Below are positions 23,245 to 60,700 of a stretch of 64,000 bases of DNA, in pieces. The translations under genes and the position numbers were made by a program. Positions within the stretch are counted from its first letter, which is position 1. Every line of letters starts with the position of its first letter. The notes below the pieces were generated by a model, which worked only from the letters and a program-made list of their open reading frames with translations, was not told where the DNA came from and did not search any database. This stretch comes from Macrostomum lignano (Eukaryota). The stretch lies in assembly GCA_002269645.1 (NCBI GenBank), contig NIVC01000471.1, positions 1-64,000 of the forward strand. Direction: 5' to 3'.

Positions 23245-25421
23245 ACTACATATCGTGCAGAAACTGCCAAGTTATTAGGCAGATTTGACGCAAAAAACGC
23301 AAATTATACTACTATCTGAAAATGAAGTAAGTAGTATACGAAAACTCTATCCTAAGCGTGATATATGGCAATATGTAGTTGTAATAATCCATGTGCTCAT
23401 ATATGTACATTAATTCCATGTACATTAATCCTTACTATCTCAAAATGGATATGTACATTAATTCCATGTACATTAATCCTTACTATCTCAAAATGGATAT
23501 GTACATTAATTCCATGTACATTAATCCCTATCCCAAATTGTCTATGTCTATCCCCAATTCTATATGTACGCAGTATGTGCATTAATCCACATGTACAGTG
23601 TCATCCCCAGACGGCCAGCGCGCGCGCACCAAAATTACAACTCGAAACCCTACTACATGTACAGTTGTACAATCTCATCCAAATGACTCAACTAATTGTA
23701 CAGCTCACATCGTATATAAACTATTTACAAAGAAGATATATTTACATTAAATCAGTAGCATATTACAGGAAATAATTTATATACAACATTACCAGCAAAT
23801 AAAATATACACAAAAAATTTACATTGTTTTTTTCAATAATTTTCTCTTCATAAATGATTTTAAACAAGTTTGACACGCAAAATATGTACAATAGATTTTT
23901 ACATTGGCAATTTCGCCGCATACAATACAAAAATGCTTTATGTACATTTGTATAGTAGTCTGTAACTGTTCATTACTTTAACATGCAAATTATGTACAAC
24001 AAATAGATTTTACTAATTTTATAATGCAAAATGTACATTGAATTGTCAGTCACCATTATTTATAGCCATAAGGCCTGCTGCAGGCCCCGTACATCCGTTT
24101 CGTCAGGACGCGCTGAAACGTCTTGTCCATACTGATCGTGTGTATAATACAAGACGCCTTGTCGCGCCTGAACTGAAACTGCGGCAGCTGCAGAGAGCCG
24201 CCGTGTAGCAGGGTGTTGCGCAAGTCGTCGCTACGCTCCCGAATCTCCGGAGTCAGGCGGATGCCCTTGCATTTCAGGACTTGGCTGCGGACACCAGCAG
24301 CATCCTCGACAATGTAAGTGTAGAGCTTGGCCCCCCCCACTTACAAAGTCGGTCATCCGGCTGCCTGCGGGCACCTCATTGGTCCACATTCCGAGGCTCG
24401 TGCCATGGGGCGGCTCCCATTGGCCCTCGGAATGCCGGTAAACGACCCTGTGTGGGAGAGAAAAACGAAATAATTAGTTCCACATGCTAACTATTCAATT
24501 CTAAAAGAATTTTTCCAATGCAATGCTTACGAGTCAGTGTCGCAGTAAATGGCCCGTTCGCCGAGCCCCTCCAATGCCTCGTACAGGCGCAGCTGGGCCT
24601 GCGTGGTCGTAAAGACTCCGATTGGCACATTGGAGTACCTGAATGGCCGCTGATTAAAGTAACGGTGCCGGTACTCTAGCAGCATAAACTCGCTGCCAAT
24701 CGGTTCGCAGGCCTTGACTTTGAGGTTGGGGTCGGTCAGCCGGGCGAGCCAGTCCTCGTAGCTGGACACAATCTCAGTCGAGGTCAGGTCGTCACGCTGA
24801 CAAAATTTGCCCCAGAGCCTGTGTAGTGAAAAGAAAAGCTACTGTTAGTAGAAGAAATCATTTAAAAAAACAAATTTTATGAATACTTACGAATTCAAAA
24901 AGATTTTCGCTACAAAGCGAAGTCCTGGGTTGGGCTCGACCTTGTCAAGCGTGACACCCTCCTTGGCGTAAAAATCGGCAATGTAGGCCGCCTTATCTTC
25001 ATCCGACATGCCGGGGGAGCCGCTCGATTCGGCCTTCATCTTGAGGAAGGCGTTTACATAATCACCGAACAGACCGGTCCGCTTCTCTGTCCAGTAGGCC
25101 AGCGCGTGAACAGCCTGCAGACGGTAGCCCAACTGGAAGGCCTTTTGCAGCTCCGGCGTTGCCCAGGTGCCAGTCAGCGCCCGTTTTTGGTCTGAGTGGT
25201 CGCAGCCGCTGCACTGCTGCTCCATACAGGTGCGGCAAAGCCCAAAAAAGAGCTTCTTTTGCACCCTGTTGGGCAGCAGCGGAATGTGCAAATCTGACGG
25301 CGGCAACACAGTCACTTTGGCAATGCCAAAGTAGCTAGCCAGCGCGTAAGAGTTAAACGTCTGCGGCGTCGGATGTTGCACCGGGTGGCCAATCGGGTAT
25401 GGGTCTTTCGACTGCACCGTC
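23245..25421 (-). mobile_element. Polinton-like element copy A: PolB-side terminus plus pPolB 3' exons
   Basis: TIR at 23245-23692, AT-rich 3' flank, then pPolB exons 24891-25421, 24531-24818 and 24056-24447. Confidence 0.85.
24056..25421 (-). pseudogene. Protein-primed family B DNA polymerase, C-terminal exons (motifs B and C), 5'-truncated
   Basis: KIFLNS|LWGKF and YCDTDS|VVYR reassembled across GT-AG introns at 24819-24890 and 24448-24530. PKLYTY...KCKGIRL (KxY motif). A +1 shift sits in the C-run near 24335. Confidence 0.9.
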
Positions 25422-26019
25422 ACTACGTAATGTGCAGAAACTGCTGGGTTTTCAGAATTCTGACGCAAAAAACGCAAATTATACTACTATCTGAAAATGA
25501 AGTAAGTAGTATACGAAAACGCTATCCTAAGCGTGATATATGGCAATATGTAGTTGTAATAATCCATGTGCTCATATATGTACATTAATTCCATGTACAT
25601 TAATCCCTATCTATCTCAAAATGGATATGTACATTAATCCCATGTACATTAATCCCTATCCCAAATTGTCTATCCCCAATTCTATATGTACATGTGCATT
25701 AATCTACAGTGTCATCCCCAGACGGCCAGCGCGCGCGCACCAAAATTACAACTCGAAACCCTACTACATGTACAATCTCATCCAAATGAGTCAACACCCA
25801 AGTTTTACAAAGCACGTTATATACATATTCCTATTTATATGTCAATTATTCAAAACCTACATGTAGCTGATTACACTACTACCTTTAGTAGAGTTACAAA
25901 TCTAGATTCTATTGAAAAAGACTGTATTCATATAGTCTCACATTGGAAAAGCGTATATTTTCATTTCAATAGTTGAAACAGAGAGCAATAACAGCAAGGA
26001 GACAACAGCAAGTTGAGAC

Positions 26020-26478
26020 TTAATTATAGCCTGTACTACCAAACCCTCCTGCACCGCGAATTGAGTGACTGCCAGCGGCCTCCTCTTCGCCATTTCCCCT
26101 ATAGAGATCCCTTACAACTACGGGAGCAATCAATACACGCTCCAAAACTAATTGAGCGATACGGTAGCCCCGAGTTATGAACCAGTCCGCATTGCCATGA
26201 TTAAATATCACCACAGTCAATTCTCCAGTATAGTCAGGGTCAATCACGCCGGCGCCCACTTGTATAGACTTGCGCAACGCTAGCCCAGACCGGCCGGCAA
26301 TCCGAGCGTAGGTCCCATCAGGCGGTTGGATTGAAATTCCGAGAGGCACCTGCGCAACCGACCCGGCCCGGACAACAGCATCTTCAGAGGCAAAGAGATC
26401 GTAGCCAACAGAACCGATCGTCTGGCGAGCCGGCGGGCAGGCACCTTCAGTCAGCAGCGACACCTTTAAAGCAGCCAT
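26020..26478 (-). CDS. dut: Trimeric dUTPase, intact and intronless
   Basis: All five motifs present: SVGYDL, RIAGRSGLA, AGVIDPDYTGE, RIAQLV, RGAGGFGSTG. Confidence 0.95.
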   Translation of the reverse strand: MAALKVSLLTEGACPPARQTIGSVGYDLFASEDAVVRAGSVAQVPLGISIQPPDGTYARIAGRSGLALRKSIQVGAGVIDPDYTGELTVVIFNHGNADWFITRGYRIAQLVLERVLIAPVVVRDLYRGNGEEEAAGSHSIRGAGGFGSTGYN

Positions 26479-26799
26479 GGTAAGTTTTTGGGTTATAATC
26501 AGTCACAGTGTTTACACACGGAATGGTTTATAGTTTTTTCATTCTAAATATCATTACTCGAAAAAATGGTAAAAATCTCAACGCAATATTTAAATTTTGC
26601 AAAACAATTTACTTGAAAAGAATGTGCATGTGGATAACGTAAGTGTGCATACACAACATTTAATGATATAGCAAGTTGAGATATAATACGAGGTGCATGA
26701 AAATTTAGATTGAGTGCAGACACAACACTTGATAAAACAAGATATGTACAAGGTGCATGAAAATAAAAATGCGTGCAGGCACAACATTAAATTGTCAAC

Positions 26800-27634
26800 A
26801 AAGCCCCGAGCCGGGGAACAGGCTGTCCAATTCTGCGGCTGTTTCATAATGTAAATCAGCCTCATACACCCGCCGCTCCTTCACCGCCGTGTAATACGCA
26901 CGCTCTTCAGTGGGGCTACCAAAACAATAGTCAGCTAGCTAGAAAAGGGAATGGTAAAAAAAGTTTTCCGCTATAATGCATTGAAATTTTGAATCAGCAA
27001 TTAGTTGCAAAAAAAAAGTTTTCGGATAAAATGCAATTATTTACCATGTCCAAGTCGGGCTCGCGGCGCCATTGTCGCAAAAATTCTTGGTATGCGGCCT
27101 CGTCAGCAACAGCAGCAGCTTCCCCACTAGCAGCAACCGCACTATGCAGCCCCATCCGAGGGGCTAAATTAATACCTAATCGGCTGCTCTTCTTCTTCAT
27201 CTGCTTCAGACTGCTACTGCTGCTGTTGCCTTCAATAGTCGCGGCGGCGGCAGCGGTGGCGACTGCGGCATGTTCACAGGGGCTGGCCCCAGCAGTCCAC
27301 AGCCATTACCGGGCTGGCAGCATTCATTACCGCAGTAGCCACCACCGCACCAACCTTGAAAGTCGTCGTCAATGCTGCTGCTGCTGTCGCCACTGATGCT
27401 GCTGTTGGTGCTGCTGCTGCTGCTGCTGCCGCTACTACTGTTGCTGTCATACGCCAGAGTTAAAACCGGTCGGGCGATATAACGATGTGGCGGGTTCCGG
27501 CCTACTCGACCGCCTCCAACCCCGCACCACAGGATTGAAGGGGTTTTGCCGCAACGCACTGCTACCGCCACCGCAACTAACTGCTCCGCCGGCTCGTCTA
27601 CACTGCTACGGCTGCGGTTGCTGCTTCTGTTCAT
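26800..27634 (-). other. ORF-X: unidentified, probably spliced or frameshifted low-complexity gene of the element
   Basis: TATAAAA at about 27711-27717 (minus strand), ATG at 27634, donor-like ATG|GTAAAT near 27047, and an open downstream segment PTEERAYYTAVKERRVYEADL. Confidence 0.3.
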
Positions 27635-27989
27635 TGTGTGCTAATGTGTGTGTGTGTGTGTGTGGTTGATCGCAAATTTGAAAAGATTTTCAGTCTCGCA
27701 GAGGTCCCGTTTTTATAGTGATTTTGCGAGGTCTCTCATTGGCTCCGCCAGCCTGCAAGCAAGCAAGCAAGCAAGCCTGCCCAAACCCTAGCCCCGCCAG
27801 CGAGTTAGTCAGTCTGACTCAACAACAGCAATATCTGTTTTAATAATAAAATTTCAAAGTCTCGGTTATTTTCAATTTCAAAATAAATGAAATAAGACCA
27901 TTTTTAATTCCAGAGATGTTATTTGTCAATTCCAGTTTATTCAAAAAGATGGTTTTCACATTATTAGAGTTGATATAATCACAGAAACA

Positions 27990-28295
27990 CAAATTCCCAC
28001 AAGTAAAAATTATACAATTGAGAGTTAATTTTGTCGCGGTCAAATTGACTGCAAACAATATGGTGCTAACAGTTAATACCCACAGGTTCGCAACAGAATT
28101 ATTATTATATATGCGCTGCCCAGACTGCGGATTGAAATGTTACAATCAGCAGTGCTTTAATAATCACCGCCAAAAGAACCGGGCTGGCCGGTCTCGCTGC
28201 AACACCACCCGCGTCTGCCCCAATTGCGGTTATCAGGAGGAGCTAAAAGCAGGCCAGAAGGAGCCGGAACACAAGTGCGGCTATATCAAAGTTAT
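27990..28295 (+). pseudogene. Rearranged fragment of the pPolB N-terminal and zinc-finger region
   Basis: VKLTANNMVLTVN joined to CPDCGLKCYNQQCFNNHRQKNRAGRSRC, paralogous to copies B and C. Confidence 0.8.
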
Positions 28296-28589: not shown

Positions 28590-29396
28590 TCACTCGACAC
28601 GCATTGGGGGCAGTTTGGCCTTGTCGCTGCTGTAGATTAGCTTAATTCGCTTGTTCTGTTCCTTGATCACAGCAGCCCAGGCAGCAAAGGCCGGCTCGTG
28701 GGGCCCAATCTGATGGGCCGGGGTCTTGAAAAGCTGTTCATCAGTCAGGCCAGCAGCCCAGCTCTCGAGCTCAGTCGAGTCCGGGTGATACGAGTGCCAC
28801 CACTTGTAGCTGCTGCCGCTGCCGCTGCCGCCGTCAGTCGTAGAAAGCTTCTTCACCTGCGGCTGCAGTTCAATCGGTGGCGGGGTGCCAGCACTGCGGC
28901 GGCGGTTGCCATTGCCGTCACCATCATTGCTGCTGCTGCAGCTGTTGAACCGCGATGATGGTTCCGAGGCCGTCTTGGGTGGTGGCGGCGGCGGCGGCGA
29001 CTGCGAGGCAAACAGCGAATCAACGTCAGCATCCATCAGAGCAGTCCACAATTCAGGGGTGAACTTGATGGAATATTTCCAACGCTCGCCCTCATCGCAG
29101 CCGGCCGGGTTGATGCGATGCAGCCAAATCTGGCTGTTTTTCACTTCCAGAATCTTGCGGCCGCTCTCACCCAGTTGAAACCGCTTATGACGAGAGTCGA
29201 GGACGTGCAGAGACTCAATAATCGGCCACGCCCGTTTGAGATGCTCCCACTCGATGCGAGTCAGAAACACGCCGGGAAAACCGTGCTTGTAGTTACCGTT
29301 CTTGTCAGTGTAGAAACGCCGAATCTCAATCAGTTCTCGATCAGTATCGAATGTGGGCTTGCGCACAACATAATTGTCAACAAGTGGAATAGACAT
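28590..29396 (-). CDS. PC4/Sub1-family ssDNA-binding protein (268 aa; possible second degenerate PC4 repeat; Pro/Ser-rich tail)
   Basis: IEIRRFYTDKNGNYKHGFPGVFLTRIEWEHLK fits the PC4 signature (vdiR.fy.d..g...p...Gi.L...qw..L). Open frame with its own TATA box. Confidence 0.75.
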   Translation of the reverse strand: MSIPLVDNYVVRKPTFDTDRELIEIRRFYTDKNGNYKHGFPGVFLTRIEWEHLKRAWPIIESLHVLDSRHKRFQLGESGRKILEVKNSQIWLHRINPAGCDEGERWKYSIKFTPELWTALMDADVDSLFASQSPPPPPPPKTASEPSSRFNSCSSSNDGDGNGNRRRSAGTPPPIELQPQVKKLSTTDGGSGSGSSYKWWHSYHPDSTELESWAAGLTDEQLFKTPAHQIGPHEPAFAAWAAVIKEQNKRIKLIYSSDKAKLPPMRVE

Positions 29397-29485
29397 TTTG
29401 ACAGAGTTTCACGGTGATAGAGCTGTTGCAAAGAGTGTCGGAGCGAGCGAGCGAGAATTCTGAAAAATCTCTCAGCAGCGTGGTC

Positions 29486-29761: not shown

Positions 29762-29844
29762 GAGATTGTGGGAGCATCACCAGTCACAGCCGCTTCCGCA
29801 TCAGCCACAATCACACCAGCATCAGCAGCATCAGCAGAAGAAGA

Positions 29845-32545
29845 ATGGCATCAAAACGCCCAGCCGCTGAAGCCGCCATTTCAGCCTTGTGGGGACAGGC
29901 TGGCCCCTCCAGGCAGCAGCAGCAACCACAGCAGCAGCATCAGCCTCCGCCCGCAAAGAGGGGACGACAGCTAGGTGAGTCTTGCAAGTCTGTGTAAAAA
30001 TTTCTTTTTCATCTTTATCTTTTACGAAACTTCAAATTCGGGATTATTGAATAATATTGGGCTGTTCTCTGTAAAAACTGCTTTTTCATCTTTGGCATTC
30101 ATTTGGCTTTCGCAAACTCAAAATAAGGCTTATTGAAATAATAATAAGGGGCGGGCAGGCCGGTATTCAGGCGGCAGTGATAAAATCAACCCCCCCCCCG
30201 ATTTTTGGGCATGATGATGTAATCACCGCTGCAATTGACAGTAGGGGTTTTGGCAGCAATAAAACTTGGCTGCTACAGTGAGGGTTATTAATCAGACAGC
30301 TTTAAAAATCCAAAAGCGGCCGCGCGGTATTGTTGCTAGGTGTCAAGGAGGCACAATGGAGGCACGTGCTGATAGGGGGTTTTCTTAAATTTTACAATGT
30401 CTGCTGCGGCAGGATCTGTGTTATCAAGGGTCATCAATCAAACATTTTTGACAGCCTAAAATTCGAAGCGGGTTAATGAACCCCACATTTCTTTTGTTGC
30501 TACGTGTCGGAACGTGCCGAGTTGGGGTTTTTACAACTCGCCGATTTTTGTTGCTTGGGCCTGGGGCTATAAAATTGCTGCTGCTGCAGGGCAATCAATT
30601 AAGTTTTTGACAGTTTTTAAAATCCGAAGCGGTCAGAATTTTAGTCACCATGCGCATTTTTATTGCAGATTTGGCTCAATTTCAACCCCCGCCCCAGCCC
30701 GACACTGTTGAAGGCGATGGTAAGGAGTTAATTTTATTTCATGAGTCATTCACCCGCCGCCTCTCGCAATTCTAATTTCAAAACCCTCCATTTTTCAGGC
30801 TTCATTGCACACCTGGGCGGGGCAAAGGCCCTGCCAAAATTTAGAGCCAAGGGCTACGAATATGAAGTAGCATTAACAAATACTACCGATGTTCGCTTAA
30901 CGATTGCAGAGGTTATTTCTGTACTCTGTGCGGACCTACACAGTGATGATTTCATCTCTGCCAAACTAACGGCGGATAACATGCTGCTCACGGTTAATGT
31001 CCCGCCCGTCCGCGCCGCCCGCTTCACTGCAGAGCTTGTTTTCAAGCATATAAACAAGGTTCTGCAGTCGGACTCCAGTGTCTTGGGCAACAACTTTAAA
31101 TTTTTTTGCTGAAGGCCTAGGGGCGGCTGCGGCAGCCTAGATGCGGCGGAGAAACACATCCAGGCTCGCCATTCAATTTAGGGACGAGTAAAAAATCTTG
31201 CGCATTTTAATTTGCATTTTTATTAATATACAAATGTTTTAGTCTTTATCAACCATCACACAGGCCGAGCCTTTCGGGGTTGACATGCTACCCCAACTGC
31301 TGGCTGTTCTGAACGCCCAGTCACCCGGCTGGGATTTCGGCGTTCGTGTGTACAGCGCGGAGGAGGGCAACACGTGCGTGTATGCTCTGCCCGGCCACAC
31401 GGTGCTGAATCTGCACCTAATTGGTGGGCATTTAAATACTGTGTGTAAAGTGCCGCCATTTTTCGGGGCCCGCCGCTATTGCGACAGCTGCCAGCAGCCG
31501 TACGACTGCATCTCTGCGCTGAGCACAAGTGTGCCAATACCTGCCCTCAGTGTAAAGTGCCCGGCTCCAATTGTAAAAGCCTGTAGCGTTACTACAAACG
31601 CTGTGCTGTCTGCGGAATGAATTGTTACAATCCGCAGTGCTTCGAGAACCACCGCCAGAAAAACCGGGGCGGCAGGTCTCGCTGCAGCTCCATACGCCTC
31701 TGCCCCAAATGCGGGTATTGCGAAGAATTTAGTCGGACAAAAGGAGCCGGATCACAAGTGCGGGCATGTCAAGTTCCCACTGTGTAAACAGTACGACGAG
31801 GCCGGCTCGCATTTGTGCTTCGTCAAGGCTCCCAAAGTGAAAGCTTCGACTATGCCGTACGTGTTCTACGATACGGAAACGTACACGGATGAGGAGAAGC
31901 AGCATCACGTGCATCTGGTGACTGCCGTCACGTGTTGCGAGACCTGTTCCGGCCGGGCGTTTCCGCGCGAGACTTGCCGCCTCTGCAATGGCCTGCATAG
32001 CACAGCCAATTGTCTGACTGGCCGCGATCTGGGGGAGGAATTCTCCAATTGCGTCAGCCACTCAAACTGCGCCTGCCAAATGGCCGATTTTGTGGCTGGG
32101 GGCCCGGCCTCGCTGAATGCTTTTTTCGCCTGGCTGAGCACAACTTTCCGAGGCGGCGCCATTGTTGTCGCGCAAAATGCATCAGGCTACGATTCGTTTC
32201 TACTGCTTGGAGCTCTGCTCAACGGCCTGGCCAAGAAGCGGCCCCAAGTACTGTTCCAGGGCAGCCGGCTAATGAGCATGACGGTGGATAAATTGTCGAG
32301 GATGCGGCCGGTGTCCGGAGCCAGGTCCTGAAATGCAAGGGCATCCGCCTGACTCCGGAGATTCGGGAACGCAGCGACGACCTGCGCAACACCCTGCTAC
32401 ACGGCGGCTCTCTGCAGCTGCCGCAGTTTCAATTCAGGCGCGACAAGGCGTCTTGTACCATTCATACGATCAGTATGGACAAGACCTTTCAACGCGTCCA
32501 GACGAAACGTCTGTACGGAGGCTGCAGCAGGCCTTATGGTTATAA
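29845..32545 (+). pseudogene. pPolB copy B: exons 29845-29974, 30669-30719, 30799-about 31170, 31264 onward; palm deleted
   Basis: Phase-1/phase-1 compatible GT-AG junctions (RQL|D, GD|G). Zinc-finger cluster, ExoI VFYDTETY, ExoII QNASGYDSFLL. A deletion joins VDKL to the C-terminal EDAAGV...KCKG. Confidence 0.85.
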
Positions 32546-32815: not shown

Positions 32816-35800
32816 ACTACGTATCGTGCAGATAGTGGTTGATTTTCAGATGTTTTGACGCAAAAAACGCAAATTATACTACTGTCTGAAAATGAAGTAA
32901 GTAGTATATGAATACGCTATCCTAAGCGTGATATACATGCCAATATGTATTCGTATATGTGCATTAATCCTTGTACTCATATATGTACATTAATCCCTAT
33001 CTATCCCAAATTGTACATGTCTATCCCTAATTCTATATGTACGCAGTACATACTTCTACAATAATCTACATGTACAGTGTCATACATTAATCCCAAGACG
33101 GCCCACGCGCTCTGCGTATGAATCACCAAGATTACGTGTACAACTCGAAACCCTACTATATGTACAGTTGTGCGCAGAGGTGAGAATCGGTGTACAATCT
33201 CATCTAAATGAGTCAACTAATTGTACAGCTCACATCGTATATAAACTATTTAGAAAGAAGATATATTTACATTAAATCAGGAGCATTTTACAGGAAATAA
33301 TTTATGTACAACATTACCAGCAAATAGAATATAATAGAATATAGAATATAGAATAATTCAATAATTTTCTCTTCATAAATAATTTTAAACAGGTCTGACA
33401 CGCAAAATATGTACAATAGATTTTTACATTGGCAATACAAAAATGCTTTATGTACATCGACATGCAAATTACGTACAACAAATATACTCTGATAATTTTA
33501 ACAATACAAAAATGTTCATTGAATTTTCAGTCACAATTAGAATACATTATTTATAGCCATAAGGAACTGCTGCGGGCCCCGTACACGCGTTTCGTCAGGA
33601 CGCGCTGAAACGTCTTGTCCATACTGATCGTGTGTATGGTACAAGACGCCTTGTCGCACCTGAATTGAAACTGCGGCAGCTGCAGAGAGCCGCCGTGTAG
33701 CAGGGTGTTGCGCAAGTCATCGCTACGCTGCCGTATCTCTGGAGTCAGGCGGATGCCCTTGCATTTCAGGACCTGGCTGCGGACACCGGCCGCATCTTCA
33801 ACAATGTAAGTGTAGTGTTTTATGCCGCTCCAACTCGCGAGTGAACCACTCGGTCTCGTGGCGGATGTGGCTCAGAGGCTGCCGTTTGAGCGGGTGGACG
33901 ACATCCTGATCGGGCATACACTGCTCGCAGCCATGGTAGAAACAACCATGAAACTGCAAGACTGTTGCTGGCCTCATCAAAGCCGTCCACCTTGCGGCCG
34001 AGAATGACCGCCTCGCCGCCAGTCGAGTCGCAGGTGCGCAGCCGCCCGCAAAATTCGGTGGTATTCAAATAGGCCAGCCACTTGCGCGCCTTGAACGACT
34101 GCTGGTCGGCCTGCCGGGCAATCACGCCGACCGAGTTGGGCTCCATGAATTTAGTAGTAAATACGGCCATTGCTAAACTGGCAATCGTATTGGCCTGAAC
34201 AAACGGTTCCAGGCCGTCGCAAATGTCGCCAATTATCGCCCTGTACTTGATGCAGCCCTCGCGAAGCAGCACCGTGTCGCTCAAACAATAATCGAGATAT
34301 TCCCGATTAAAGTTGAACAACTCGCCCTGTCGCGAGGCCAGCCAAGCAGAGATGGAGTCGTAGTCATTGTTTGCCTTGCCGCCATAATATTCAATAGCCG
34401 GGTAAGGGCCAACGTAGTTCCAATTAGCCGGCTTGTTAAACTCGTGGGGAAAGGTCCCCTTGGCCAGCTTTGTGTCAGCGAGCCCCAGCGCTTTGGGGAA
34501 TTGCGCAAGCGGGAATGGTATAAAATTTAACGAATCTTTAAATACCAATTTATCCACCGTCATGCTCATTAGCCGGCTGCCCTGGAACAGTACTTGGGGC
34601 CGCTTCTTGGCCAGGCCGTTGAGCAGAGCTCCAAGCAGTAGAAACGAATCGTAGCCTGATGCATTTTGCGCGGCAACAATGGCGCCGCCTCGGAAAGTTG
34701 TGCTCAGCCAGGCGAAAAAAGCATTCAGCGAGGCCGGGCCCCCAGCCACAAAATCGGCCATTTGGCAGGCGCAGTTTGAGTGGCTGACGCAATTGGAGAA
34801 TTCCTCCCCCAGATCGCGGCCAGTCAGACAATTGGCTGTGCTATGCAGGCCATTGCAGAGGCGGCAAGTCTCGCGCGGAAACGCCCGGCCGGAACAGGTC
34901 TCGCAACACGTGACGGCAGTCACCAGATGCACGTGATGCTGCTTCTCCTCATCCGTGTACGTTACCGTATCGTAGAACACGTACGGCATATTTGAAGCTT
35001 TCACTTTGGGAGCCTTGACGAAGCACAAATGCGAGCCGGCCTCGTCGTACTGTTTACACAGTGGGAACTTGACATGCCCGCACTTGTGATCCGGCTCCTT
35101 TTGCCCGACTTTTAATTCCTCCAAATAGCCGCAATTAGCGCAGACACGGATGGAGCTGCAGCGCGAACGGCCGGCCCGGTTCTTCCTGCGGTGATTGTCA
35201 AAGCACTGCTGATTGTAGCACTTGAGGCCGCAGTCAGCGATGCGCTTAAAGTCGCACAGGCTTTTACAATTGGAGCCGGGCACTTTGCACTGATAACAGA
35301 GGTTGGCACACTTGTGCTCAGCGCAGAGATGCAATCGTACGGCTGCTGGCAGCTGTCACAGTGGCGGCGGGCTCCGAAAAATGGCGGCACTTTGCACACA
35401 GTGTTTAAGTGCTCGCCAATTAGGTGCACATTCAGCACTGTGCTGTCTGGTAGGGCATACACACATGTATTGCCCTCCTCGGCAGTATACACACGAACAC
35501 CGAAATCCCGGCCTGGCCACTGGGCGTTCAGGACAGCCAGCAGTTGGGGGAGCACGTCAACCCCGAAAGGCCCGGCCTGTGCAATGGTTGATTAAGACTA
35601 AAACATTTGTATATTAATAAAAATGCAAATTAAAATGTGCAAGAACATTATTACTCACCGAATACAATTTGGCAGCAATTTGTAGCTCCCCAGTCAGCTT
35701 CTTTTGCAGTGGGGAGTCGGCCTTGATGGTTTGCCACGTATTCTTAGTAATGGCCTTGGCCTGCAGATCCGCGTATGCCTTGGCCACCACAAGTGCCCGG

Positions 35801-37368
35801 ATTAAACAGCGCTTGTCGCGGTTAGCGATGACCACGTAGTTATACCCCATAGCATGCCTGGCCTGGATGTGTTTCTCCTTCACATCCAGGCTGCCGCAGC
35901 CGCCCCGCGGGACCCAGGCCTTGAGCAAAAACAATTTAAAGTTTTTGCCCAAGACACTGGAGTCTGATTGCAGAACCTTGTTTATATGTTTAAATATTAA
36001 CTCTGCAGTGAAGCGGCTGCGGCGGACGGGCGGGACATTGATAGCGAGCAACATGTCGTCGGCAGTCATCTTGGCCGAGACGAAATCATTGGCGTGTAGG
36101 TCAGCGCAGAGCGCAGAAATTATTTTTTCGAATGTGCTTCGAATATCGATAGTATCGGCGAAGAATACCACATATTCGTAGCCCTTGGCTTTAAATTTAG
36201 GCAGGGCTTTCGCCCCGCCAAGATGCGCATTGAAGCCTTAAAAAATGGAGGGTCTGAAATTAGAATTGCGAGAGGGGGCGGGTGAATGACTCATGAAATA
36301 AAATCAACTCCTTACCATCGCCTTCGACAGTGTCGGGCTGGGGCGGGGGTTGAAATTGAGCCAAATCTGCAATAAAAATGCGCATGGTGACTAAAATTCT
36401 GACCGCTTCGGATTTTAAAAACTGTCAAAAACTTAATTGATTGCCCTGCAGCAGCAGCAATTTTATAGCCCCAGGCCCAAGCAACAAAAATCGGCGAGTT
36501 GTAAAAACCCCAACTCGGCACGTTCCGACACGTAGCAACAAAAGAAATGTGGGGTTGATTGACCCCCGCTTCGAATTTTAGGCTGTCAAAAATGTTTGAC
36601 CCTTGATAACACAAATCCTGCCGCAGCAGAGATTGTAAAATTTAAGAAACCCCCCTATCAGCACGTGTCTCCATTGTGCCTCCTTGACACCTAGCAACAA
36701 TACCGCGCGGCCGCTAAAGCTGTCATAAATGCCTGATTAATAACCTTACCTGTAGCAGCCAAGTTTTATTGCTGCCAAAACCCCTACAATTGCAGCGGTG
36801 ATTACATCATCATGATAAAAAAATTTTGGGGTTGATTTTATCACTGCCACCTGCCCGCCCGCTGAGTCACGTTCGCGCGCGCGCGCTCGCCACAGAATTG
36901 CTGTTTTTGCTTCTCTAGTACAAGGATTAGTCATATAGCCCCCTGAAATTTTATGGCTATCCTCTACACACATTATTCGGCTATACTGCTGCTGCGGATA
37001 TTCTCTAAAACTCTGTTATTTCATTAGGCAATTGAGAAATCCGAAAACAGTTTCCTCCCTTTACTTCAACATCTATGGCAGGAGGAGGACAGCCTGACTT
37101 CAGAAATTTTAAGCCAAAATGAATGCTAAAGATGAAATGCAGCTGTGGTTTCAAAGAAAACCCATATTTCAACAAGCGTTAAGTTTGCAAATCACACAAA
37201 TGCTAAAGCTGAAAAGCGCAATTATACAGCCCTTTTTTCTGATTTTAGATTTTGCAAATGCTAAAGATAAAAAGCATAGTTTTACGCGCGCGCAGAGACT
37301 CACCTAGCTGTCATCCCCTCTTTGCGGCCGGAGGCTGATGCTGCTGCTGCTGCTGCTGCTGCTGCCTG
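32816..37368 (-). mobile_element. Polinton-like element copy C (inverted): PolB-side TIR plus pPolB exons 1 (partial) to 4, with the palm deleted
   Basis: TIR at 32816-33217. Exons 37304-37368, 36316-36366, 35659-36236 and 35576 onward. ExoIII YCLSDTVLL and VSR-like KVDG...QFHGCFYHGC. Deletion junction near 33815. Confidence 0.87.
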
Positions 37369-37708: not shown

Positions 37709-38280
37709 TGTTACAGGGCTTGGTTAATCTATTAGAATCTCACTGATGTCACTAAAATCTGTTGTAGGGTGAGATTACTGACTCCTATTTTATCAAATTA
37801 TCACAAGGGATTTAATTGGGGAATAAAGAAAGATGCAAATTCTACTACTGACAGGAGTAAGCCTTAGGTTGCTCCTGGTGGCGTGGTGTGTCCGAGCGGC
37901 AAGACACTATATCTCTATTCAGTCCGAGTATTTAGAGGAGGGGGGAGTAAGGGCTTGATACTAAATTAGACTAAAGGCTACTAATGATACTATTTCTTAC
38001 TATTAACAACACTAAAAACATATTTTTATTTAGGCACGAAGATCTTTAATCGAATAGAAAAATAGTCGTAGTTATAAGGCAACATGCACAAGAATAATAG
38101 GCTAAGAATAACGGCTCTTTCAACTGGCCTTCCTGGCTTGAAAAATTGAATGAACGGTGAGTGAAAGTTTTCAAAAATAGAGCAATATTCGAACAATACA
38201 AAAAACAAAAGCGTAGATTATGGAAGCGAAAAATGCACCTAAATGTTTCACACCTGTAAAATGAATGTTTGTCGGTAATG

Positions 38281-41746: not shown

Positions 41747-42324
41747 TCAAATGTTTTAGAATAATGTGTTGCGGGGGTGTGCCCCTCTGACGATGACTAT
41801 GATCGTTGATGTTGCTGTTGAATCAAATAAGTCGGAGGTTCGATTTGTTTCTCTCGATCTCTAACCTTCAACAAGATGTTTATTACTAATCAATGTTAGT
41901 AGCAATTCCTAATAGGATATTGATCACGCAATTACGCAAATTTGTTAAGCAATTCAGTGAAAATGGAGCCACAGGCTACTTATCGATATTGTTGCACGAA
42001 TTGACGTTTGTCCGGATTTATCTCTGTTAAATCGGGATATTAGAGTTCAGGCCCGATTGTTGGGGCAAGCTAGCGGAGCAGTTGAGGAGGCAAAGAGGCG
42101 GAGAGCCGAGAACCGGGAAAAAACTGGAGAGAGGCTTCATTCTCACTGAACGCTAGTATATATATGATTTCTATAACGCATTTCATTGGTGTTCGCTTCA
42201 CGCAATAGGATCTTTACTGGTGCACAAGCATGTGCTGTACTTTCCTGATAGAAAAACCTTCTGAAGTTCGCATTAGATTAAAAAATAACATTGGGCATAA
42301 CATGCTTAAATTAAGATCACTTCA
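41747..42324 (-). repeat. G2 3' LTR
   Basis: Direct repeat of 54534-55111. Sense-strand ends are TGAAG...TTTGA. Confidence 0.95.
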
Positions 42325-52587: not shown

Positions 52588-54520
52588 GCAATGATCTGTG
52601 GAATGGGTTTACTTCGAGTGGTCTTGCAATTAAGAGTTGAAAATATAATCCGCAATTTTGTAACAATAAAGATTTGAAATAGCGTGAAGCAATAGCATCT
52701 GAGCGTGATTTGCGGTCATCTATCCAGGGTCAGTTTTTTGTTTTATATAAGCAAATTTTCAATATGTAGAGCTTCGGTAGCTGTAGTATCATTTATCAAA
52801 AGTGTGAGTTTAGAGCAATTTTGAGCAAGTGTTGAACAGTTGTATAAAGTAGAACTGAGTAGAGTCGGCTGATGCGCCTGTACTAATTATAATATAGCTC
52901 AGCGGTGGAGCAGTTAAAATATTTCATAGAAGCAGCAATAAAAGCTGAGCCTCATCCTTGGATTGAGTTTGATTAGAATTTGAACAGATTTTGGTAGAAG
53001 ATTCAGCGGAGGCGGCAATTTGCGCGTTAATGCCTTTGAGATCGAACGGATTGGGTTGAAAACTCAGCTGGTGAGTTGTGGTTAAGATGCCAGCGGATGT
53101 GGCGATGCGTGTTGAGTACGCGATTTGAATTTGTTGTAAAAGGAACGAAAGAGACTCTGCAGAAGTCTGTGGAAGCAAGGCAGAGGCGTATGAGTGGCGT
53201 GCCAAAACTTCAAACTTGGAACACGATGAGCATGAACCAAGCACCAGTCCTGGGTTTAAGTGTGTAATTGACAAATAGATTCGGCCGACTAAAATAGAAT
53301 TATAATTACCTGAAGGCAGGTGTAGAGGTCCTGTGTATAGGACAATTGCCGCGGGCTTATCGCTGCTAATCATGAAGAAATGATGTGGCTGCTTGAAATT
53401 GAGAAACAAGGAATAGGGAATAGGAGAGGGTGGGTAGCAATCACAGCGTAATTTTTATTTTGTTTTGAGAAATTTTGAACGACTGCGAAGGCTAAAGGGC
53501 TGGTGTATGGGTAGACGAGGGTGGTAGGTTGTACTTTGCGGAGAAGGAAAGCGGATTGTAGTATAAATAAGAGCTTGGGACGGAAATTATTCCCATTAGA
53601 GAACAATGGGGGTTTCTGATGGGAAAGCCCAAGGAGGGGAAGCAGCCATTGAAAAAAAAATGAATTCCCTGGGGTAAGAGAAGATTGAGAGTACTGAGAG
53701 TGTCGCACCGGTGTGACAGAATCATTCTCCCTCACTTTCTATCCCTGGGGATGAGAATTGCAGCGGAGAGAAGAGCTGGAGCGGATCACAGCTGAATTGT
53801 GGTAGGGCGTTGAGCCAACTGAGTGAGGCGCGGAGCCGATAGGGCGTTTTAGCCAACTGAGTGAGGCGAACTGAGGCCAGTTGAGGCTGGTTTGTGAACT
53901 GATGCAGACCGGAATGGAACTAGAATTTCCAGAAGACGAAAAACGATGCAGATCTGCTGTGAACCAGCCGGAGTAAAGGCGGAATTCTCCGGACGAGAAC
54001 TGGTTTTGCGAGGCTAAAAATAGAAAAAGGATTGAGACAATGCTGGTTGCCTGGTTGGGATTTGTCGCCCAGGCAGGATATTTATAGAACAGAGTGAGAT
54101 TGTGGAGAAAGAGCAAGGTGAACTTGACGTTCTTTGAGGTGAGGCGAGCAAAGTACTCGGAGAAAGTATATCAGAAGGGCGTAAATAGTGGGAATGGGTG
54201 GATTCCCATCGGAACCGGTTTGAGGACTGGTTCGCTGCTGGTTCTCCGAAGCGGGAGAGCGATTAGAGGTTGTAAATTTAAGAACATTAAATAACACTAA
54301 TCTTTTCTACGATTCTACAGCTTGGGAGATTCATACACGTAGTATTTTTGTAGTTTTGCAAATTGTATTGGTTTTTATATTTTGTAATTTTTTTTAATTT
54401 TTATATTTTTTACTGACCCTTTCTAAGATGCCATCACTAGCTCATAGCCAGCTCCACGGAGGTGTTCACCCCAGCATATTAAAGCCGGGCATGTTGAAGG
54501 AAATTACGGAGAGAAACAAG

Positions 54521-54532
54521 GTCGGGGAGCCA
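54521..54532 (-). promoter_or_regulatory. G2 primer-binding site, probably tRNA-Asp
   Basis: TGGCTCCCCGAC lies 1 nt after the 5' LTR. It is complementary to the 3' end (…GTCGGGGAGCCA) of invertebrate tRNA-Asp(GTC), as recalled. Confidence 0.7.
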
Positions 54533-54533
54533 G

Positions 54534-55111
54534 TCAAATGTTTTAGAATAATGTGTTGCGGGGGTGTGCCCCTCTGACGATGACTATGATCGTTGATGTT
54601 GCTGTTGAATCAAATAAGTCGGAGGTTCGATTTGTTTCTCTCGATCTCTAACCTTCAACAAGATGTTTATTACTAATCAATGTTAGTAGCAATTCCTAAT
54701 AGGATATTGATCACGCAATTACGCAAATTTGTTAAGCAATTCAGTGAAAATGGAGCCACAGGCTACTTATCGATATTGTTGCACGAATTGACGTTTGTCC
54801 GGATTTATCTCTGTTAAATCGGGATATTAGAGTTCAGGCCCGATTGTTGGGGCAAGCTAGCGGAGCAGTTGAGGAGGCAAAGAGGCGGAGAGCCGAGAAC
54901 CGGGAAAAAACTGGAGAGAGGCTTCATTCTCACTGAACGCTAGTATATATATGATTTCTATAACGCATTTCATTGGTGTTCGCTTCACGCAATAGGATCT
55001 TTACTGGTGCACAAGCATGTGCTGTACTTTCCTGATAGAAAAACCTTCTGAAGTTCGCATTAGATTAAAAAATAACATTGGGCATAACATGCTTAAATTA
55101 AGATCACTTCA
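54534..55111 (-). repeat. G2 5' LTR
   Basis: Direct repeat of 41747-42324; followed by the PBS. Confidence 0.95.
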
Positions 55112-57742
55112 CTGCGACAGGGACTTCAAAAACTTCAGATGCTATTTCAGCAAGTTCAGGGGCTGCTTCAGGGGATACTTCAGGGGCTTCAGCTATCTCA
55201 GCTGGTCTTCTTGACAATCCGTCGGCATTGGAATGCTTTGCACCGCTTCTGTGTTCAATGTCGAACCTGAATTCATTTAGACGCTCTATCCATCTACCTA
55301 AGATTCGGTTGCTTCAGTCTATCTCATGAGCCAAATTATCGCTTTATGATCAGTTCAAGCTAAGAATTTCTTGCCGATCAGATAAAATCTGAAATGCCTC
55401 ATAGCGTCGACAAGGGCTAACAATTCTTTCCGAGTAATGGGGTATCGCTTCTCAGATTATTTCATTGCTCTACTAAAATAAGCTATTGGTCGCTCTATGC
55501 CATCACTCTGGATTTGGCCAAGGCATGCGCCAATCCTGTCGTCACTGGCATTTGTGTCGAGCACCATCTTCACATTCTCATCATCGACATATTCGGGGTA
55601 GGCTAACACTTCAGTGGATATCATTCGCTGCTTTAGGGACTCAAAGGCTTCGTCATGCACTTTGCTTCACTTAGATTGGAAATTCTGGACTCCTTTTCGG
55701 GTCAATTGGAATAGGGAGTGAGCCACTTCGGCATAATTTTTCACAAATCGGCAATAATAATTGCATAGGCCAAGAAAACTGCGTAGTTCTTTTACGTCTT
55801 TGGGACGGGGCCAAGTTTAAATTGCTTCAATCTTCGTCTTGTCTGTTTGAATGCCTTGTCGGCCAATCACGTGTCCTAAATACTTTAACTCGTGATGGAA
55901 AAGATTGCACTTTTTGGGTCTCAACTTCAGACCTGCGGCAATTAGTCGCTTAAACACTTCTCTTAAGTGTTCTAAATGGTCTGCAAAAGTTTAGGAGTAG
56001 GCTATAATATCGTCTATATAGGACATAGCGAACTTGTGTTGAATTCCTAATAGTACTAAATTCATTAGACGTTGGAAGGTTCCGGGGGCATTGGAAAGTC
56101 CTTGGGCCATCACTTGGTGTTCAAATTGGCCTCTAGTTAGGGTGGAGAAGACGGTTCTATGCTTATCTTCTTCTTTGATGGGGACTTGCCAGTATCCTGA
56201 GTTTAAATCAAGGCTGCTAAAATATTGGCTACCAGTTAGGTGGGAGAAGGTCTCTTGGATATTGGGGAGGGGGTAGGGGTAGTAATTAACTCTCGAGTTG
56301 AGCACACGGAAATCGATAACTATTCTAATGGAACCATCTTTCTTGGGGACAATTACTAAGGGGGTGGAGTAGGTTGAGTAACAGGGTCTAATTAGGTTTT
56401 TGGCTAACATATCAACTAATTGGGCGTCAACTTGCTTTTGCAAGTGTGGGGGGATGCGTCTGGCTGGGATTCTAACGGGAGTGGGGTCTTTGATGGATAT
56501 TTCGTGGGTTACTAAGTGTGTCAGGCCCATGTCTAATTCATTCTGGGAAAAAGCTTCACGGTTTTCTTTCATTAAGTCGATGACTGCTTTTCGCTGTTCA
56601 TCTGACAGTTCAGGGCCAAGGCTCACTTCATTAATCCATGAATCTTCTGTACATTGAGTCTGGTTGACTTTCGCAGGGGGTTGGGAGCTGGGGGGTTGGG
56701 TTTGCCAATAGGTTAGATCTTTAGCTTTCATGGGTCTGGCTAAGCCAATTAGGGAAGTCTTAGTTAAATTCACATCTACTGGGTGGCGGTTAATAATTTC
56801 GACAATTCCTCTGCCTTCTTTCATAGTTACTAGGGTTGGAACCATTTCTAATGAGAAATCGCGGGTTCGGATAGTATCGCCAATGGCTTCTATGGTCATG
56901 GGGGTGCCGTAATTCGATTCACAATTCTTGGCTAACTTTACGGGTATTCGGAGAGCACTATTAGCTGGGATGATTGTTCTTTATTGAGTATAAACTCGGC
57001 AAACTTTCACGGGTAGGCGGGTATACTGCATGGATATACAAGTACCTTCGTTAAGCACTAGCATTCCTTTGGCTAGCTGAATGCTTTCGCATTGGGATAG
57101 GAAAAATTCCATTCCTAAAATATTATCGCAATCATGTCGGCATAGGAGGAAATCAACTTCAATTTGGATATCGCCAAACTTCACTTGGGCGGATACTTCT
57201 CCTTCTAATTGAACTGGGTTACCGTCAAATGTACTAATACTTTGCTAGTTTCTTGGATTTGATCGGCACGGAATAGCTTAGACCAGGTTGAGCGGCTCAG
57301 GAAATTATTTCTGGCGCCTGTGTCTAGCAGAAAATCAATGGTCTCTTTCTGGATATCGCCGACAATTACAGCTTCATAGCCTTCTAGCTTAGTCAGGTCG
57401 ATTCGGGATGGGGAATTGGGTTTTGGCTTTTGTCGCTTCCTTGAGCGACTTTCAGCACTGGATAGAGCATTATTGACTTCAATCGCATGGGATACATGGG
57501 GTGCAAGCGCAGTGGGTACATGGGGTGCGGACGCATGATGTACATAAGCTTTGGTCGCATTGGTTACATGAGAGGCGGTCGCATGAGGAGAATTGTACAC
57601 ATGGGGGTCATGGGGGGCATTTGGCATGGCATCGTCGGCATCATCAAAGGCAAGAAGTGAAAAATTGTTGGGGGAGACAGATATCGCGTTATTTACAGGC
57701 ATTGGCTGTACATGGGAGGTTTTGCGGGGATAGCGGAAACCA

Positions 57743-60700
57743 CGCGAGACTTGCCGCCTCTCCAATGGCCTGCATAGCACTGCCAATATTCTGACTGGCC
57801 GCGATCTGGGGAAGGAATTCTCCAATTGCGTCAGCCGCTCAAACTGCGCCTGCCAAATGGCCGACTTTGTGGCTGTGGGGCCGACCTCGCTGAATGCTTT
57901 TTTCGCCTGGCTAAGCACCACATTCCGAGCCGGCGCTATCGTTGTCGCGCACAATGCATCAGGCTATGATTCATTTTTACCGCTTGGCGCTCTACTTAAC
58001 GGCCTGGCCAAGAAGCGGCCCCAAGTGTTGTTCCAGGGCAGTTGGCTAATGTGCATGACGGTGAATAAATTGGTATTTAAAGACTCGCTAAACTATATAC
58101 CAATCCCGCTTGCGCAATTCCCCAAAGCTCTGGGGCTGGAAACAAAGCTGGCCACGACCTTTCCCCACGAGTTCAATAAGCCGGCCAATTGGAACTACGT
58201 GGGTCCCTTCCCGGCTATTGACTATTATGGCGACAAGGCAAACAACGATTACGGCTCCATCTGTGCTTGGCTGGCCTCGCGACAGGGCGAGTTGTTCAAC
58301 TTTAATCGGGAATATCTCGATTATTGTTTGAGCGACACGGTGCTGCTTCGCGAGGGCTGCATCAAGTACAGGGCGATAATTGGTGAAATTTGTGACGGCC
58401 TGGAACCGTTTGTTCAGGCCAACACAATTGCCAGCCTCGCAATGGCCGTCTTCACCACTAACTTCCTGGAGCCCAACTCGGTCGGCGTGATTGCCCAGCA
58501 GGCTGACCAGCAGTCGTTCAAGGCGCGCAAGTGGCTGACTTATTTGAATGCCACTGAATTTGGCGGGCAGCTGCGCACGTGCGACTCGACTAACGGCGGC
58601 GAGACTGTCATACTCGGCCGCAAGGTGGACGGCTTCAATGAGGCCAGCAACACTGTTTTGCAGTTTCATGGCTGTTTCTACTATGGCTGCGAGCAGTGCA
58701 TGCCCGATCAGGATGTCGTCCACACGCTCAAGCGGCAGCCTTTGAGCCACATCCGCCACGAGACTGAGTGGTTACTCGCGAGTTGGAGCGGCATAATTAC
58801 AGTGTTCGTGTCATTTGGGAGCATGAATACAACTCTGTATTGGCATCGCAGGCTGATTTTATCGCCGCAACTGACCATCTGCGCGCCCCGCTCAAGATGG
58901 AGGATGCGCTCTATGGCGGGCGCGTAGTGTTTCATCCCGCATGCTGTGGCCAGCGAGACTGAGACGCTTAAATATCGGGATGTGGTGAGTAGTGATACTA
59001 CTAATATAGTAGAATATTTGTATTTTTGTATAGTAGAATTTTGCAAAAATATGAAAAACCGTTTATGAAATATATATTTGTTTCATTGACTGCCATGCGG
59101 GTCTCTCTGTACCCGACGGTGCAGTCGAAAGACCCGTACCCGATTGGCCACCCGGTGAACCACCCGACGCCGCAGGAGCTCGATTCTGACGCGCTGGCTA
59201 GCTACTTTGGCATTGCCAAAGTGACTGTGCTGCCACCGTCGGATTTGCACATTCCGCTGTTGCCATACAGGGTGCAAAAGAAGCTCTTTTTTGGGCTTTA
59301 CCGCACCTGTATAGAGCAGCCGCAGGAGCAGTGCAGCGGCTGCCACCCCTCAGACGAGGAACGGGCGCTGACTGGCACCTGGGCAACGCCGGAGCTGCGG
59401 AAGGCCTTCCAGTTGGGCTACTAACTGCAAGTTGTGCATTCGCTAGCCTATTGGACAGAGCAGCGGAATGGCCTGTTCAGCGATTACGTCAATACCTTCC
59501 TCAAGTTGAAGGCCGAGTCGAGCGGCTCCCCCGACATGACTGATGAAGACAAGGCCGCCTAAATTGCCGATTTTTTACGCTAAGGAAGGCGTCACGCTGG
59601 TCAAAGTCGAGCCCAACCCTGGACTTCGCTTTGTAGCGAAAAAATTTTTGAATTCGTAAGTAATCATAAATTCTGTTTTTTAAACGATTTCTTCTACTAA
59701 CAGGAACCAATCTTTTCACAAGCTCTGGGGTAAATTCTGTCAGCGTGACGACCTGACATCGACAGAAATAGTTTCCAGTTACGAGGACTGGCTCGCCCGG
59801 CTGACCGAACCCAATCTCGAAGTCAAAGCCTGCGAACCGATTGGCAGCGAGTTTACGCTGCTTGAGCACCGGCACCGCTACTTTAATCAGCGGCCGTTCC
59901 GCTACTCCAATGTGCATATCGGGTTTTACGCAGACACACAGGCCCGGCTGCGCCTGTACGAGGCCTTGGAGGGTCTCTGTGAACGGGCCATTTACTCCGA
60001 CACCGACTCGTAAGTATTGCAGGCTGGATAATTTCTTTTAGAATTGATTACGTATCAATTCCTAACATGTGAAATCCGAACTAATAGCCTATTTTCTTCC
60101 CCCCACCCCCAACACACACACAGGGTCGTTAACCGCCATTCCGAGGGCCAATGGGAGCCGCCCCTATGGCACGAGCCTTGGAATGTGGACGGGACGGATG
60201 AGGTGCCCGCAGGCAGCCGAATGACCGAGTTTGTGAGTGGAGGGCCCAAGCTCTACACTTACACTGTCGAGGATGCGGCTGGGCGGAGGAGCCAGGTCTT
60301 GAAATGCAAGGGCATTCGCTTGACTCCTGAGATTCGGGAGAGCAGTAAGGACTTGCGCACCACGCTGTTACACGGCGGCTCTCTGCAGCTGCCGCAACTT
60401 CAGTTCGGGCGCGACAAGACGTTTCAGCGCGTGCTGACTAAACGAGTGTACGACGGGGCTGTGTGCAGCCAGCCTTATGGTTATAAATAATGCGGCCCTT
60501 GTGACTGACTGACTATTAAATGTACATTAAAACATTTCTGCTTGTAAAAATTTGTAAGAGTAAAATCTATTTGTTGTTTTACATATTTTGCATGTCAAAT
60601 TTACATAAAACCGTTTATGAAGAGGAACCGACCGACTATACAAATGTACATAAACCTTTTGTATCGTATGCAGTGAAATTGCCAATGTAAAAATCCATTG

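Follow-up and report, generated by a model that had tools for sequence, protein, structure and literature searches.

Why should the gene for a DNA polymerase be interrupted by introns exactly where its catalytic residues are encoded? The question is raised by a 64,000-nucleotide (nt) stretch of the genome of the flatworm Macrostomum lignano (contig NIVC01000471.1, positions 1 to 64,000; called the window here), which carries several copies of a gene for a protein-primed DNA polymerase of family B (pPolB). A family scan assigned the gene to PF03175, and M. lignano proteins in the databases were 92 to 93% identical to its product. Spliceosomal introns lie in all three of its catalytic motifs. 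Almost certainly these are ordinary short U2-type introns in the pPolB gene, of the type with a very-short-patch repair (VSR) domain, of an element derived from a Polinton. On this reading the host spliceosome must remove them, and they are older than the split between two families of the gene that are about 60% identical. They are long-established and fixed, bear no resemblance to one another, and are copied along with the element.

Introns of the polymerase gene

The original prediction, made from the letters of the window, placed five intervals in motifs A, B, and C. All five lay exactly where it had put them and split those motifs (Table 1); one of them (58985-59100) is the sole motif A intron in the window. 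The predicted 288-nt exon between introns B and C was confirmed in both copies, as were the branch-like sites of the minus-strand copy (CTAAC and CTAAT, both at -30). Canonical ends (GTAAG..CAG) were found in both introns of the minus-strand copy and in intron C of the plus-strand copy, but introns A and B of the latter have noncanonical 3' ends. Three more introns had been predicted in the N-terminal part. Two of these, I1 and I2, were mapped fully; the third, I0, was supported by its acceptor at position 36367, with its donor unsettled.

The M. lignano genome gave at least 41 DNA matches to the pPolB gene (family 1), plus a second family (family 2) that is about 58 to 60% identical in amino acid sequence. 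Among the genomic stretches fetched, both intron ends were canonical in 27 of 30 family 1 cases for intron A, 26 of 32 for intron B (after removal of one chance match in a viral contig), and 27 of 29 for intron C. The corresponding numbers for family 2 were 21 of 21, 21 of 21, and 20 of 20. These counts include near-identical copies; there were 10 to 22 distinct sequences per site. Introns A, B, and C have GT-AG ends and occupy identical codon positions, in identical phases, in the two families. I1 and I2 are also common to both, so that five introns of polB are fully mapped and a sixth, supported by its acceptor, is probable.

Between the families the introns are 0.53 to 0.59 identical; the GT..AG ends are kept while the interior drifts. 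Intron lengths are spread over all three frames, and their GC content is 0.25 to 0.42. The exons hold their length and frame, and a ratio of nonsynonymous to synonymous substitution rates (dN/dS) of 0.04 to 0.13 indicates purifying selection on the polymerase. A CTRAY-type branch-like site was absent within 45 nt of the end of intron A in 21 of 22 cases. No self-splicing fold was found in the window by Rfam at gathering thresholds, and the introns are also too short for group I or group II introns. In 15 of the 30 family 1 cases, intron A contains no stop and keeps the frame; because of this it could formally be read through, which would place about 27 residues inside motif A.

Evidence of splicing was sought in 4 of 24 sequencing runs, compared with one genomic copy; no listed run is on record as RNA, and three of the four were classed as RNA by a guess of the search tool. 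The joint of intron C (81 nt skipped, CT..AC ends, minus strand) was present in all three probable RNA runs, which came from three studies. The joint of intron B (77 nt skipped) was present in two of the three, and one 921-nt contig lacked both introns. The fourth run, of unrecorded kind and with even coverage, had neither joint. Unspliced contigs also occurred in the probable RNA runs. Among the joints listed there was none for intron A, I1, or I2; seven further joints were unlisted and coverage was patchy, and this is no evidence against splicing.

Uninterrupted motif A and motif B patterns had no match in the genome, versus 88 matches for the motif B donor (10 in the reversed control). Because the uninterrupted motif B pattern had no match, an intron-free copy contained in the assembly was ruled out as the source of the motif B joint. 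The junctions proposed as a check were found, in probable RNA runs, for introns B and C, with none listed for intron A. Some copy is thereby shown to be transcribed, with at least introns B and C spliced out.

An active polymerase needs splicing. This dependence, which had been predicted for the copies at hand, can be claimed for the family but not for the window copies, because none of these is complete. The plus-strand copy has lost its 5' part, adjoins retrotransposon sequence at its start, and has at least one stop and two frameshifts. Of the remaining copies, one has a 5' truncation, another has an internal deletion, and two are fragments. The window copies of the gene are dead.

Table 1. 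Features of the pPolB gene copies and of the surrounding elements in the window
Feature	Position	Strand	Details
Intron A	58985..59100	+	Motif A, YRDV|VSLYP; phase 0; 116 nt; GC 0.27; GTGAG donor; noncanonical 3' end
Intron B	59656..59721	+	Motif B, FLNS|LWG; phase 2 in Ser; 66 nt; noncanonical 3' end
Exon between motifs B and C	59722..60009	+	288 nt
Intron C	60010..60123	+	Motif C, DTDS|V; phase 2 in Ser; 114 nt; GTAAG..CAG
Intron B	24819..24890	-	72 nt; GTAAG..CAG; CTAAC at -30; homologous intron seen spliced
Exon between motifs B and C	24531..24818	-	288 nt
Intron C	24448..24530	-	83 nt; GTAAG..CAG; CTAAT at -30; homologous intron seen spliced
N-terminal intron I2	35577..35658	-	Phase 0; 82 nt; GTGAG..CAG; same site in family 2
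N-terminal intron I1	36237..36315	-	Phase 1; GTAAG..AG; same site in family 2
Probable N-terminal intron I0	36367..36749	-	Acceptor at 36367; donor at 36749 or 37303
pPolB copy, 5' part lost	57734..60490	+	Exonuclease, VSR-like, and palm regions; PF03175
pPolB, 3' part only	24056..25420	-	Starts right after motif A and adjoins an element end located directly before it
pPolB copy with N-terminal exons	33547..36366	-	Motif A to C region lost by internal deletion
Inverted partial copy of pPolB N-terminal half	30470..32331	+	Internally deleted
Fragment of pPolB N-terminal exons	61200..62050	-
dUTPase gene	26020..26502	-	Single open reading frame; PF00692, E 4.7e-31
PC4-like gene	28590..29408	-	Single open reading frame; probable single-stranded DNA-binding protein; PF02229, E 6.7e-6
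Ser-rich open reading frame	27206..27640	-	No family; possible donors just downstream
Element end	23245..23300	-	Terminal repeat tip, 5'-ACTAC type
Element end	25422..25475	-	Terminal repeat tip
Element end	32816..32870	-	Terminal repeat tip

Placement of the introns in conserved motifs

The pPolB motifs align with those of intron-free relatives, and the protein is 30 to 40% identical to VSR-type pPolB2 proteins. We compared the intron sites with a conservation profile of 65 non-Macrostomum polymerases (about 1,270 positions). The sites of introns A, B, and C are its three highest peaks (top 1.3, 1.0, and 0.3%, 7-residue window), and conservation is poor around the two mapped N-terminal introns (top 94 and 57%). 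Fisher's test, which was applied post hoc, gave p values of 4e-4 to 4e-3 over four window sizes. Over the whole Macrostomum gene, three of six introns fall in the top 3% (p 6e-4; 3.5e-3 if only G|G junctions are allowed). There are about 16 strong conservation peaks, of which only the three catalytic ones carry introns, and the 650-codon exon with the exonuclease and VSR motifs is free of them.

Motifs A, B, and C were contiguous in 84, 79, and 81 of 85 relatives, respectively. In the comparison suggested with the original prediction, the motifs are uninterrupted in the host DNA polymerases delta, alpha, and zeta, which were named from their motif sequences, and in the classical group 1 Polintons of the M. 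lignano genome at the motifs read. The prediction also put the introns close to the classic pol-a, pol-b, and pol-c intein sites. They are nearby but not at the same residues; introns A and B lie 15 nt and 2 nt from the pol-a and pol-b positions. The pol-c site (site III) is YGD|TDS, and the motif C intron is 8 nt downstream of it (PMC549080).

To these data we added loci from outside Macrostomum: the best 80 of 398 confirmed loci of a metagenome scan and 5 viral loci, 85 altogether, read with a purpose-written spliced aligner. The aligner recovered the known introns; in each Macrostomum test copy it also made a single false call, inside an insert specific to the lineage. In the 85 loci it made 48 intron calls, of which we accepted 18, in 11 loci (7 lineages). 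Seventeen of these were needed to avoid a stop or frameshift and were AT-rich; the other was in frame with a perfect donor and acceptor. The 30 dropped calls were in frame without a stop (28) or had weak donors and exon-like GC content (2).

Short GT-AG introns interrupt motif B in five lineages. Their three positions lie 5, 6, and 8 nt downstream from the site used in Macrostomum, and one of the five lineages also has an intron in motif C. Six of nine distinct intron sites were in the top 10% of conservation (p 6e-5), or four of seven with motif B counted once (p 0.003). The metagenome query was taken from proteins having intron-like ends, and it stopped at motif B, so that loci with upstream introns ranked lower. 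In addition, some introns of variable regions may be concealed among the in-frame calls that were dropped. The 3' part of the gene was unbiased by the query. There, all eight calls, in 7 of 55 loci, were in the cores of motif B or C, which make up 4% of the candidate sites and 10% of the G|G sites. Two of these intron-bearing loci belong to ordinary Polintons, in which the polymerase has an integrase next to it.

Of the 49 loci read through motif B, 34 were placed in a tree and 15 close kin were omitted. A single clade of motif B intron loci was rejected (approximately unbiased [AU] test, p 9e-5; 7 versus 27 rows). One tree placed Macrostomum as sister to a protein that ends at the identical motif B site; this grouping was gone in the next tree, and we did not use it. 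Because five lineages carry motif B introns at three further positions, the placement of the introns in catalytic motifs is non-random and recurrent and is not due to chance. Of targeting and chance, the alternatives named in the original prediction, chance is very unlikely and targeting is unproven.

Some further observations concern these relatives. One metagenomic pPolB2 lineage (L147, L156, and L157) has at least four phase 0 introns of 48 to 81 nt; one of them follows motif A closely, and another closely precedes the VSR motif. Some relatives known from called open reading frames stop at motif B, at motif C, or at the VSR motif, each with a tail that resembles a donor (P0167, P0184, P0226, P0229, P0276, P0204, P0215, P0263, P0156, P0243, and P0256). 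Such protein ends suggest more intron-bearing lineages; they are leads only, with one lineage confirmed in DNA (L084).

What could have brought the introns to these sites? Our tentative explanation, held with less than even confidence, is that site-specific nucleases cutting the most conserved polymerase DNA drove introns into the catalytic motifs. By one route, the introns would be relics of homing introns that lost their nuclease gene. By another, they would spread and protect because an outside nuclease cuts the uninterrupted motif; one candidate is the VSR-like domain that is part of this polymerase class. An intron would be the one change that destroys the nuclease target without altering an essential residue. 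This targeting is supported by the position of the introns on the three highest conservation peaks, by the use of the same three motifs by PolB inteins, and by the interruption of motif B at several neighboring bases in different lineages. Inteins and group I introns prefer conserved sites and spliceosomal introns in general do not (PMC2814812), and mirusviruses have spliceosomal introns that carry homing nucleases of the HNH, GIY-YIG, and VSR-like types (PMC12768974).

Several findings weigh against targeting. Other accepted introns fall within or next to the VSR motif, right after motif A, and at two variable sites, and a single gain may account for the three lineages whose motif B introns have the same position (AU p 0.29). 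At none of the motifs did the 85 loci yield a long intron or one that codes for a nuclease. The motif introns, 48 to 144 nt long, have no sequence in common from one site to another (best p of 0.05 in 28 cross comparisons). The same VSR-like domain is present without a motif B intron in 42 of 49 loci; because most relatives with the domain lack a motif intron, self-cleavage by it is not obligatory. Finally, retention alone can give the same pattern (PMC2814812).

That last point is the core of a rival explanation, survivor bias, which we consider rather unlikely. Introns would be gained at random in the nucleus and then, as the element is streamlined, lost by imprecise deletion at sites where the protein can bear it; those in invariant codons could not be lost that way. 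The idea needs no nuclease, and it was raised in PMC2814812. It fits the presence of further introns within or next to conserved motifs (at the VSR motif and right after motif A) and the distribution of coding insertions, which keep away from conserved columns (0 of 21 in the top 10%). However, the Macrostomum introns in the variable N terminus have been kept in both families (two shared, the third by its acceptor). Moreover, only 3 of the roughly 16 strong peaks are occupied, all of them catalytic, so that dozens of gains and losses would be needed, and motif B is interrupted far more than neighboring peaks.

Regulation is an improbable alternative. Intron retention would give a polymerase-dead protein that keeps its terminal-protein, exonuclease, and nuclease parts and could supply primer or act as a repressor, for which the P-element repressor is a parallel; a mis-spliced product would be safely inactive. 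Several true Polintons have a single open reading frame of >1,000 codons broken once, at motif B. In addition, spliced and unspliced contigs both occur in the probable RNA runs, intron A is open and in frame in half of the family 1 cases, and the structural genes of the partner element described below are single open reading frames. However, any upstream stop-bearing intron gives a dead product, so exact placement in the motifs is not predicted, and the unspliced contigs may be DNA or may come from dead copies.

It is very unlikely that chance and ascertainment account for the pattern, that is, that introns were noticed because the motifs are recognizable and that G-rich codons (Trp-Gly) offered proto-splice sites. 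The origin and end point of the metagenome query penalize upstream introns, some of the 28 dropped in-frame calls may be real variable-region introns, and conserved columns hold more than their share of G|G junctions (14% in the top 10%). However, the whole Macrostomum gene was inventoried and gave the significant values above, also for G|G sites alone, and every call in the unbiased 3' part was in motif B or C. Furthermore, introns B and C are at C|G junctions and the commonest other site is at T|G, which are weak proto-splice contexts.

Least of all do we credit copying of the introns from homologous sites of host replicative polymerases, which are contiguous at the three motifs, or the possibility that the intervals are coding insertions: half of the family 1 intron A copies can be read in frame, but interval lengths vary over all three frames while the exons keep length and frame, nearly all of the 85 relatives have contiguous motifs, and B and C are spliced, so that the refutation proposed with the original prediction does not hold for these two.

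The polymerase element, its partner, and satellites

All eight polymerase elements with both ends have terminal repeats (5'-ACTAC..GTAGT-3') and perfect 6-bp target duplications; integration with 6-bp duplications is shown. Seven are 8.8 to 10.4 kb long. The eighth is 18 kb through inserted retrotransposon sequence; this repeat pair was considered as a full-length Polinton and rejected. The elements encode polB and the PC4-like protein, and some also carry the dUTPase gene and the Ser-rich open reading frame. No integrase, capsid, protease, or ATPase gene was found in any of the eight. Between the exonuclease and palm regions of the polymerase is a VSR-like insert, a putative nuclease, in which VDG..FHGCFYHG aligned with relatives annotated as very-short-patch repair endonucleases. 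The element ends gave 243 and 151 matches in the genome. The last 30 nt of the ends vary modularly between copies, and both ends of one copy are usually identical. At L064:700-1845, a family 2 polymerase element interrupts the major capsid gene of a further structural module of Polinton type; this capsid is 32% identical to that of the partner.

The missing genes were found in two 10.2-kb elements with like ends (L176-L177 and L178-L179), which encode an integrase (PF00665), minor and major capsid proteins, a protease, and an ATPase, all as single open reading frames. Neither of these two structural elements, as read, has a polymerase. One has a 6-bp target duplication; the other is without a matching duplication. 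The capsid assignment is based on 27% identity to the open reading frame at the capsid position of another Polinton and on an Atlas score of 0.98 to double-jelly-roll clusters. At least six integrase matches of the structural-element type were among those listed. About 100 further Polinton-type integrase copies were 38 to 44% identical to the query. The 73 capsid matches of another search, as far as they were read, were rejected as the partner and belong to classical Polintons with other ends and intron-free group 1 polymerases.

Four repeat pairs without polB, tried as a capsid segment and rejected, are palindromic elements of 8.7 to 9.4 kb, near-perfect over their whole length (L172 and L174 with family 1 ends, L173 and L175 with family 2 ends). 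They have the same ends, 6-bp duplications in all four cases, repeated internal units, and no long open reading frame; one 24-residue stretch is common to palindromes of both families (50%, E 6e-4). They are probably satellites of the polymerase-element system.

The polymerase element behaves like a Polinton, but by itself it departs from Polintons in its lack of integrase and capsid genes, its end motif, and its intron-bearing gene; with the partner, the gene set would be full. We think it likely that the polymerase element is half of a two-part Polinton, carrying the polymerase and PC4-like genes and sometimes dUTPase, and that the integrase, capsids, protease, and ATPase come from the partner, whose ends are like its own. 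In such a system the host spliceosome would assemble the polymerase mRNA in the nucleus, the polymerase would replicate the three types of element by protein priming at the ends that they share, and the partner's integrase would insert them all. Protein priming is established for the pPolB enzyme class (PMC11161782).

The alternative is that the polymerase and structural elements are separate deletion derivatives, each mobilized by an unsampled full-length Polinton, which we judge to be on the unlikely side. The searches list best candidates, two structural copies were read, and the 100 or so other integrase copies are outside that reading; one structural copy also lacks a matching target duplication. 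On the other hand, all eight polymerase elements are without integrase and capsid, both structural elements are without polymerase, the ends are alike, and the polymerase is under purifying selection. No other group 2 polymerase family came up in the searches except one decayed copy, and no full-length parent Polinton was found among the best candidates listed.

The targeting and two-part readings can be combined in a broader scenario, which is speculative and on balance doubtful. The VSR-like nuclease of pPolB2 would be a domesticated homing endonuclease that cuts the uninterrupted motifs of rivals, and the motif introns would be immunity marks or relics. The Macrostomum polymerase would belong to a bipartite polintovirus with a spliced replication segment, an intron-free structural segment, and its own palindromic satellites.

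Other features of the genome and window are recorded here for completeness. A decayed classical Polinton of the same genome (L021, L056, and L057) has a group 2 polymerase in which motifs A and C are contiguous, next to remnants of a capsid gene and of ATPase-like and integrase-like genes. Positions 38000 to 57700 of the window hold nested long terminal repeat (LTR)-retrotransposon-like open reading frames that abut the plus-strand polB copy (labels from reading translations). One of these has 1,959 codons, with a long central region between its gag-like and protease-like parts. At 13806 to 18541 and 10516 to 12590 are inverted repeats, a 969-nt pair (100%, around a 20-nt tandem array) and a second pair of 470 nt, unrelated to the polB element.

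Comparison with known systems

We found no literature report of motif-placed pPolB introns, Macrostomum Polintons, or a bipartite Polinton, mainly in open-access main texts; the earliest Polinton descriptions or Repbase may note a multi-exon polB. What appears to be new is a polymerase in a 9- to 10-kb terminal-repeat element without integrase or capsid and with a structural partner that has like ends, a candidate for a bipartite Polinton. If this is true, a Polinton split into polymerase and structural elements, with satellites, in a tractable flatworm would be a new genome plan for the group.

The Macrostomum element resembles the VSR-type pPolB2 Polintons (Mavericks), a marine nematode and mollusc group (10.1101/2023.08.22.554363), in its PF03175 domain, its VSR-like insert (FHGCFxHG), its terminal inverted repeats, and its 6-bp duplications. 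Unlike these, it has six introns in polB, counting the probable one, is 8.8 to 10.4 kb long, and lacks integrase, capsid, protease, and ATPase. The same source describes pPolB2 with an HNH or VSR domain, and its matching text leaves spliceosomal introns unmentioned. The Macrostomum ends are the reverse of the usual 5'-AGTAG, and the classical Polintons of the same genome end in ..CTACT-3'. Vertebrate Maverick ends are mostly 5'-(AGT)2..(ACT)2-3' or AG repeats (PMC8097293). Polinton core genes have been described as intronless (10.1101/2022.07.12.499685), and intact vertebrate Mavericks are without introns, "intact" being defined by intronless open reading frames (PMC8097293). Surveys with that requirement would class the living lineages described here as decayed.

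The shintrons of mirusviruses, which are nuclear DNA viruses, are likewise GT-AG introns in essential genes, are gene specific, and involve VSR-like nucleases among others (PMC12768974). In contrast to these, the Macrostomum introns are short, lack an open reading frame, are in the polymerase gene rather than in morphogenesis genes, and have an animal host. A homing endonuclease gene was absent from all accepted motif-site introns, including those from outside Macrostomum. The recurrent placement in motifs is a testable case of intron gain by targeting, with a possible link to mirusvirus homing introns.

PolB inteins (sites I to III) and group I introns in polymerase genes occupy the same three motifs and cluster at the most conserved sites (PMC549080, PMC2814812); unlike them, the Macrostomum introns are removed by the spliceosome at the RNA level, are at other residues, and have no self-splicing fold. 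The introners of dinoflagellate Polinton-like elements are also spliceosomal introns inside integrated elements, but they are repeated, similar sequences mostly gained after integration (10.1101/2025.03.18.643946), whereas the Macrostomum introns are old, fixed, and mutually unlike. The division of labor has its parallel in the bipartite bidnaviruses, which have pPolB on one segment and the other genes on a second with matching ends (PMC8502044). Bidnaviruses are non-integrating and not of the double-jelly-roll kind; both parts of the Macrostomum system, in contrast, are integrated, with 6-bp duplications.

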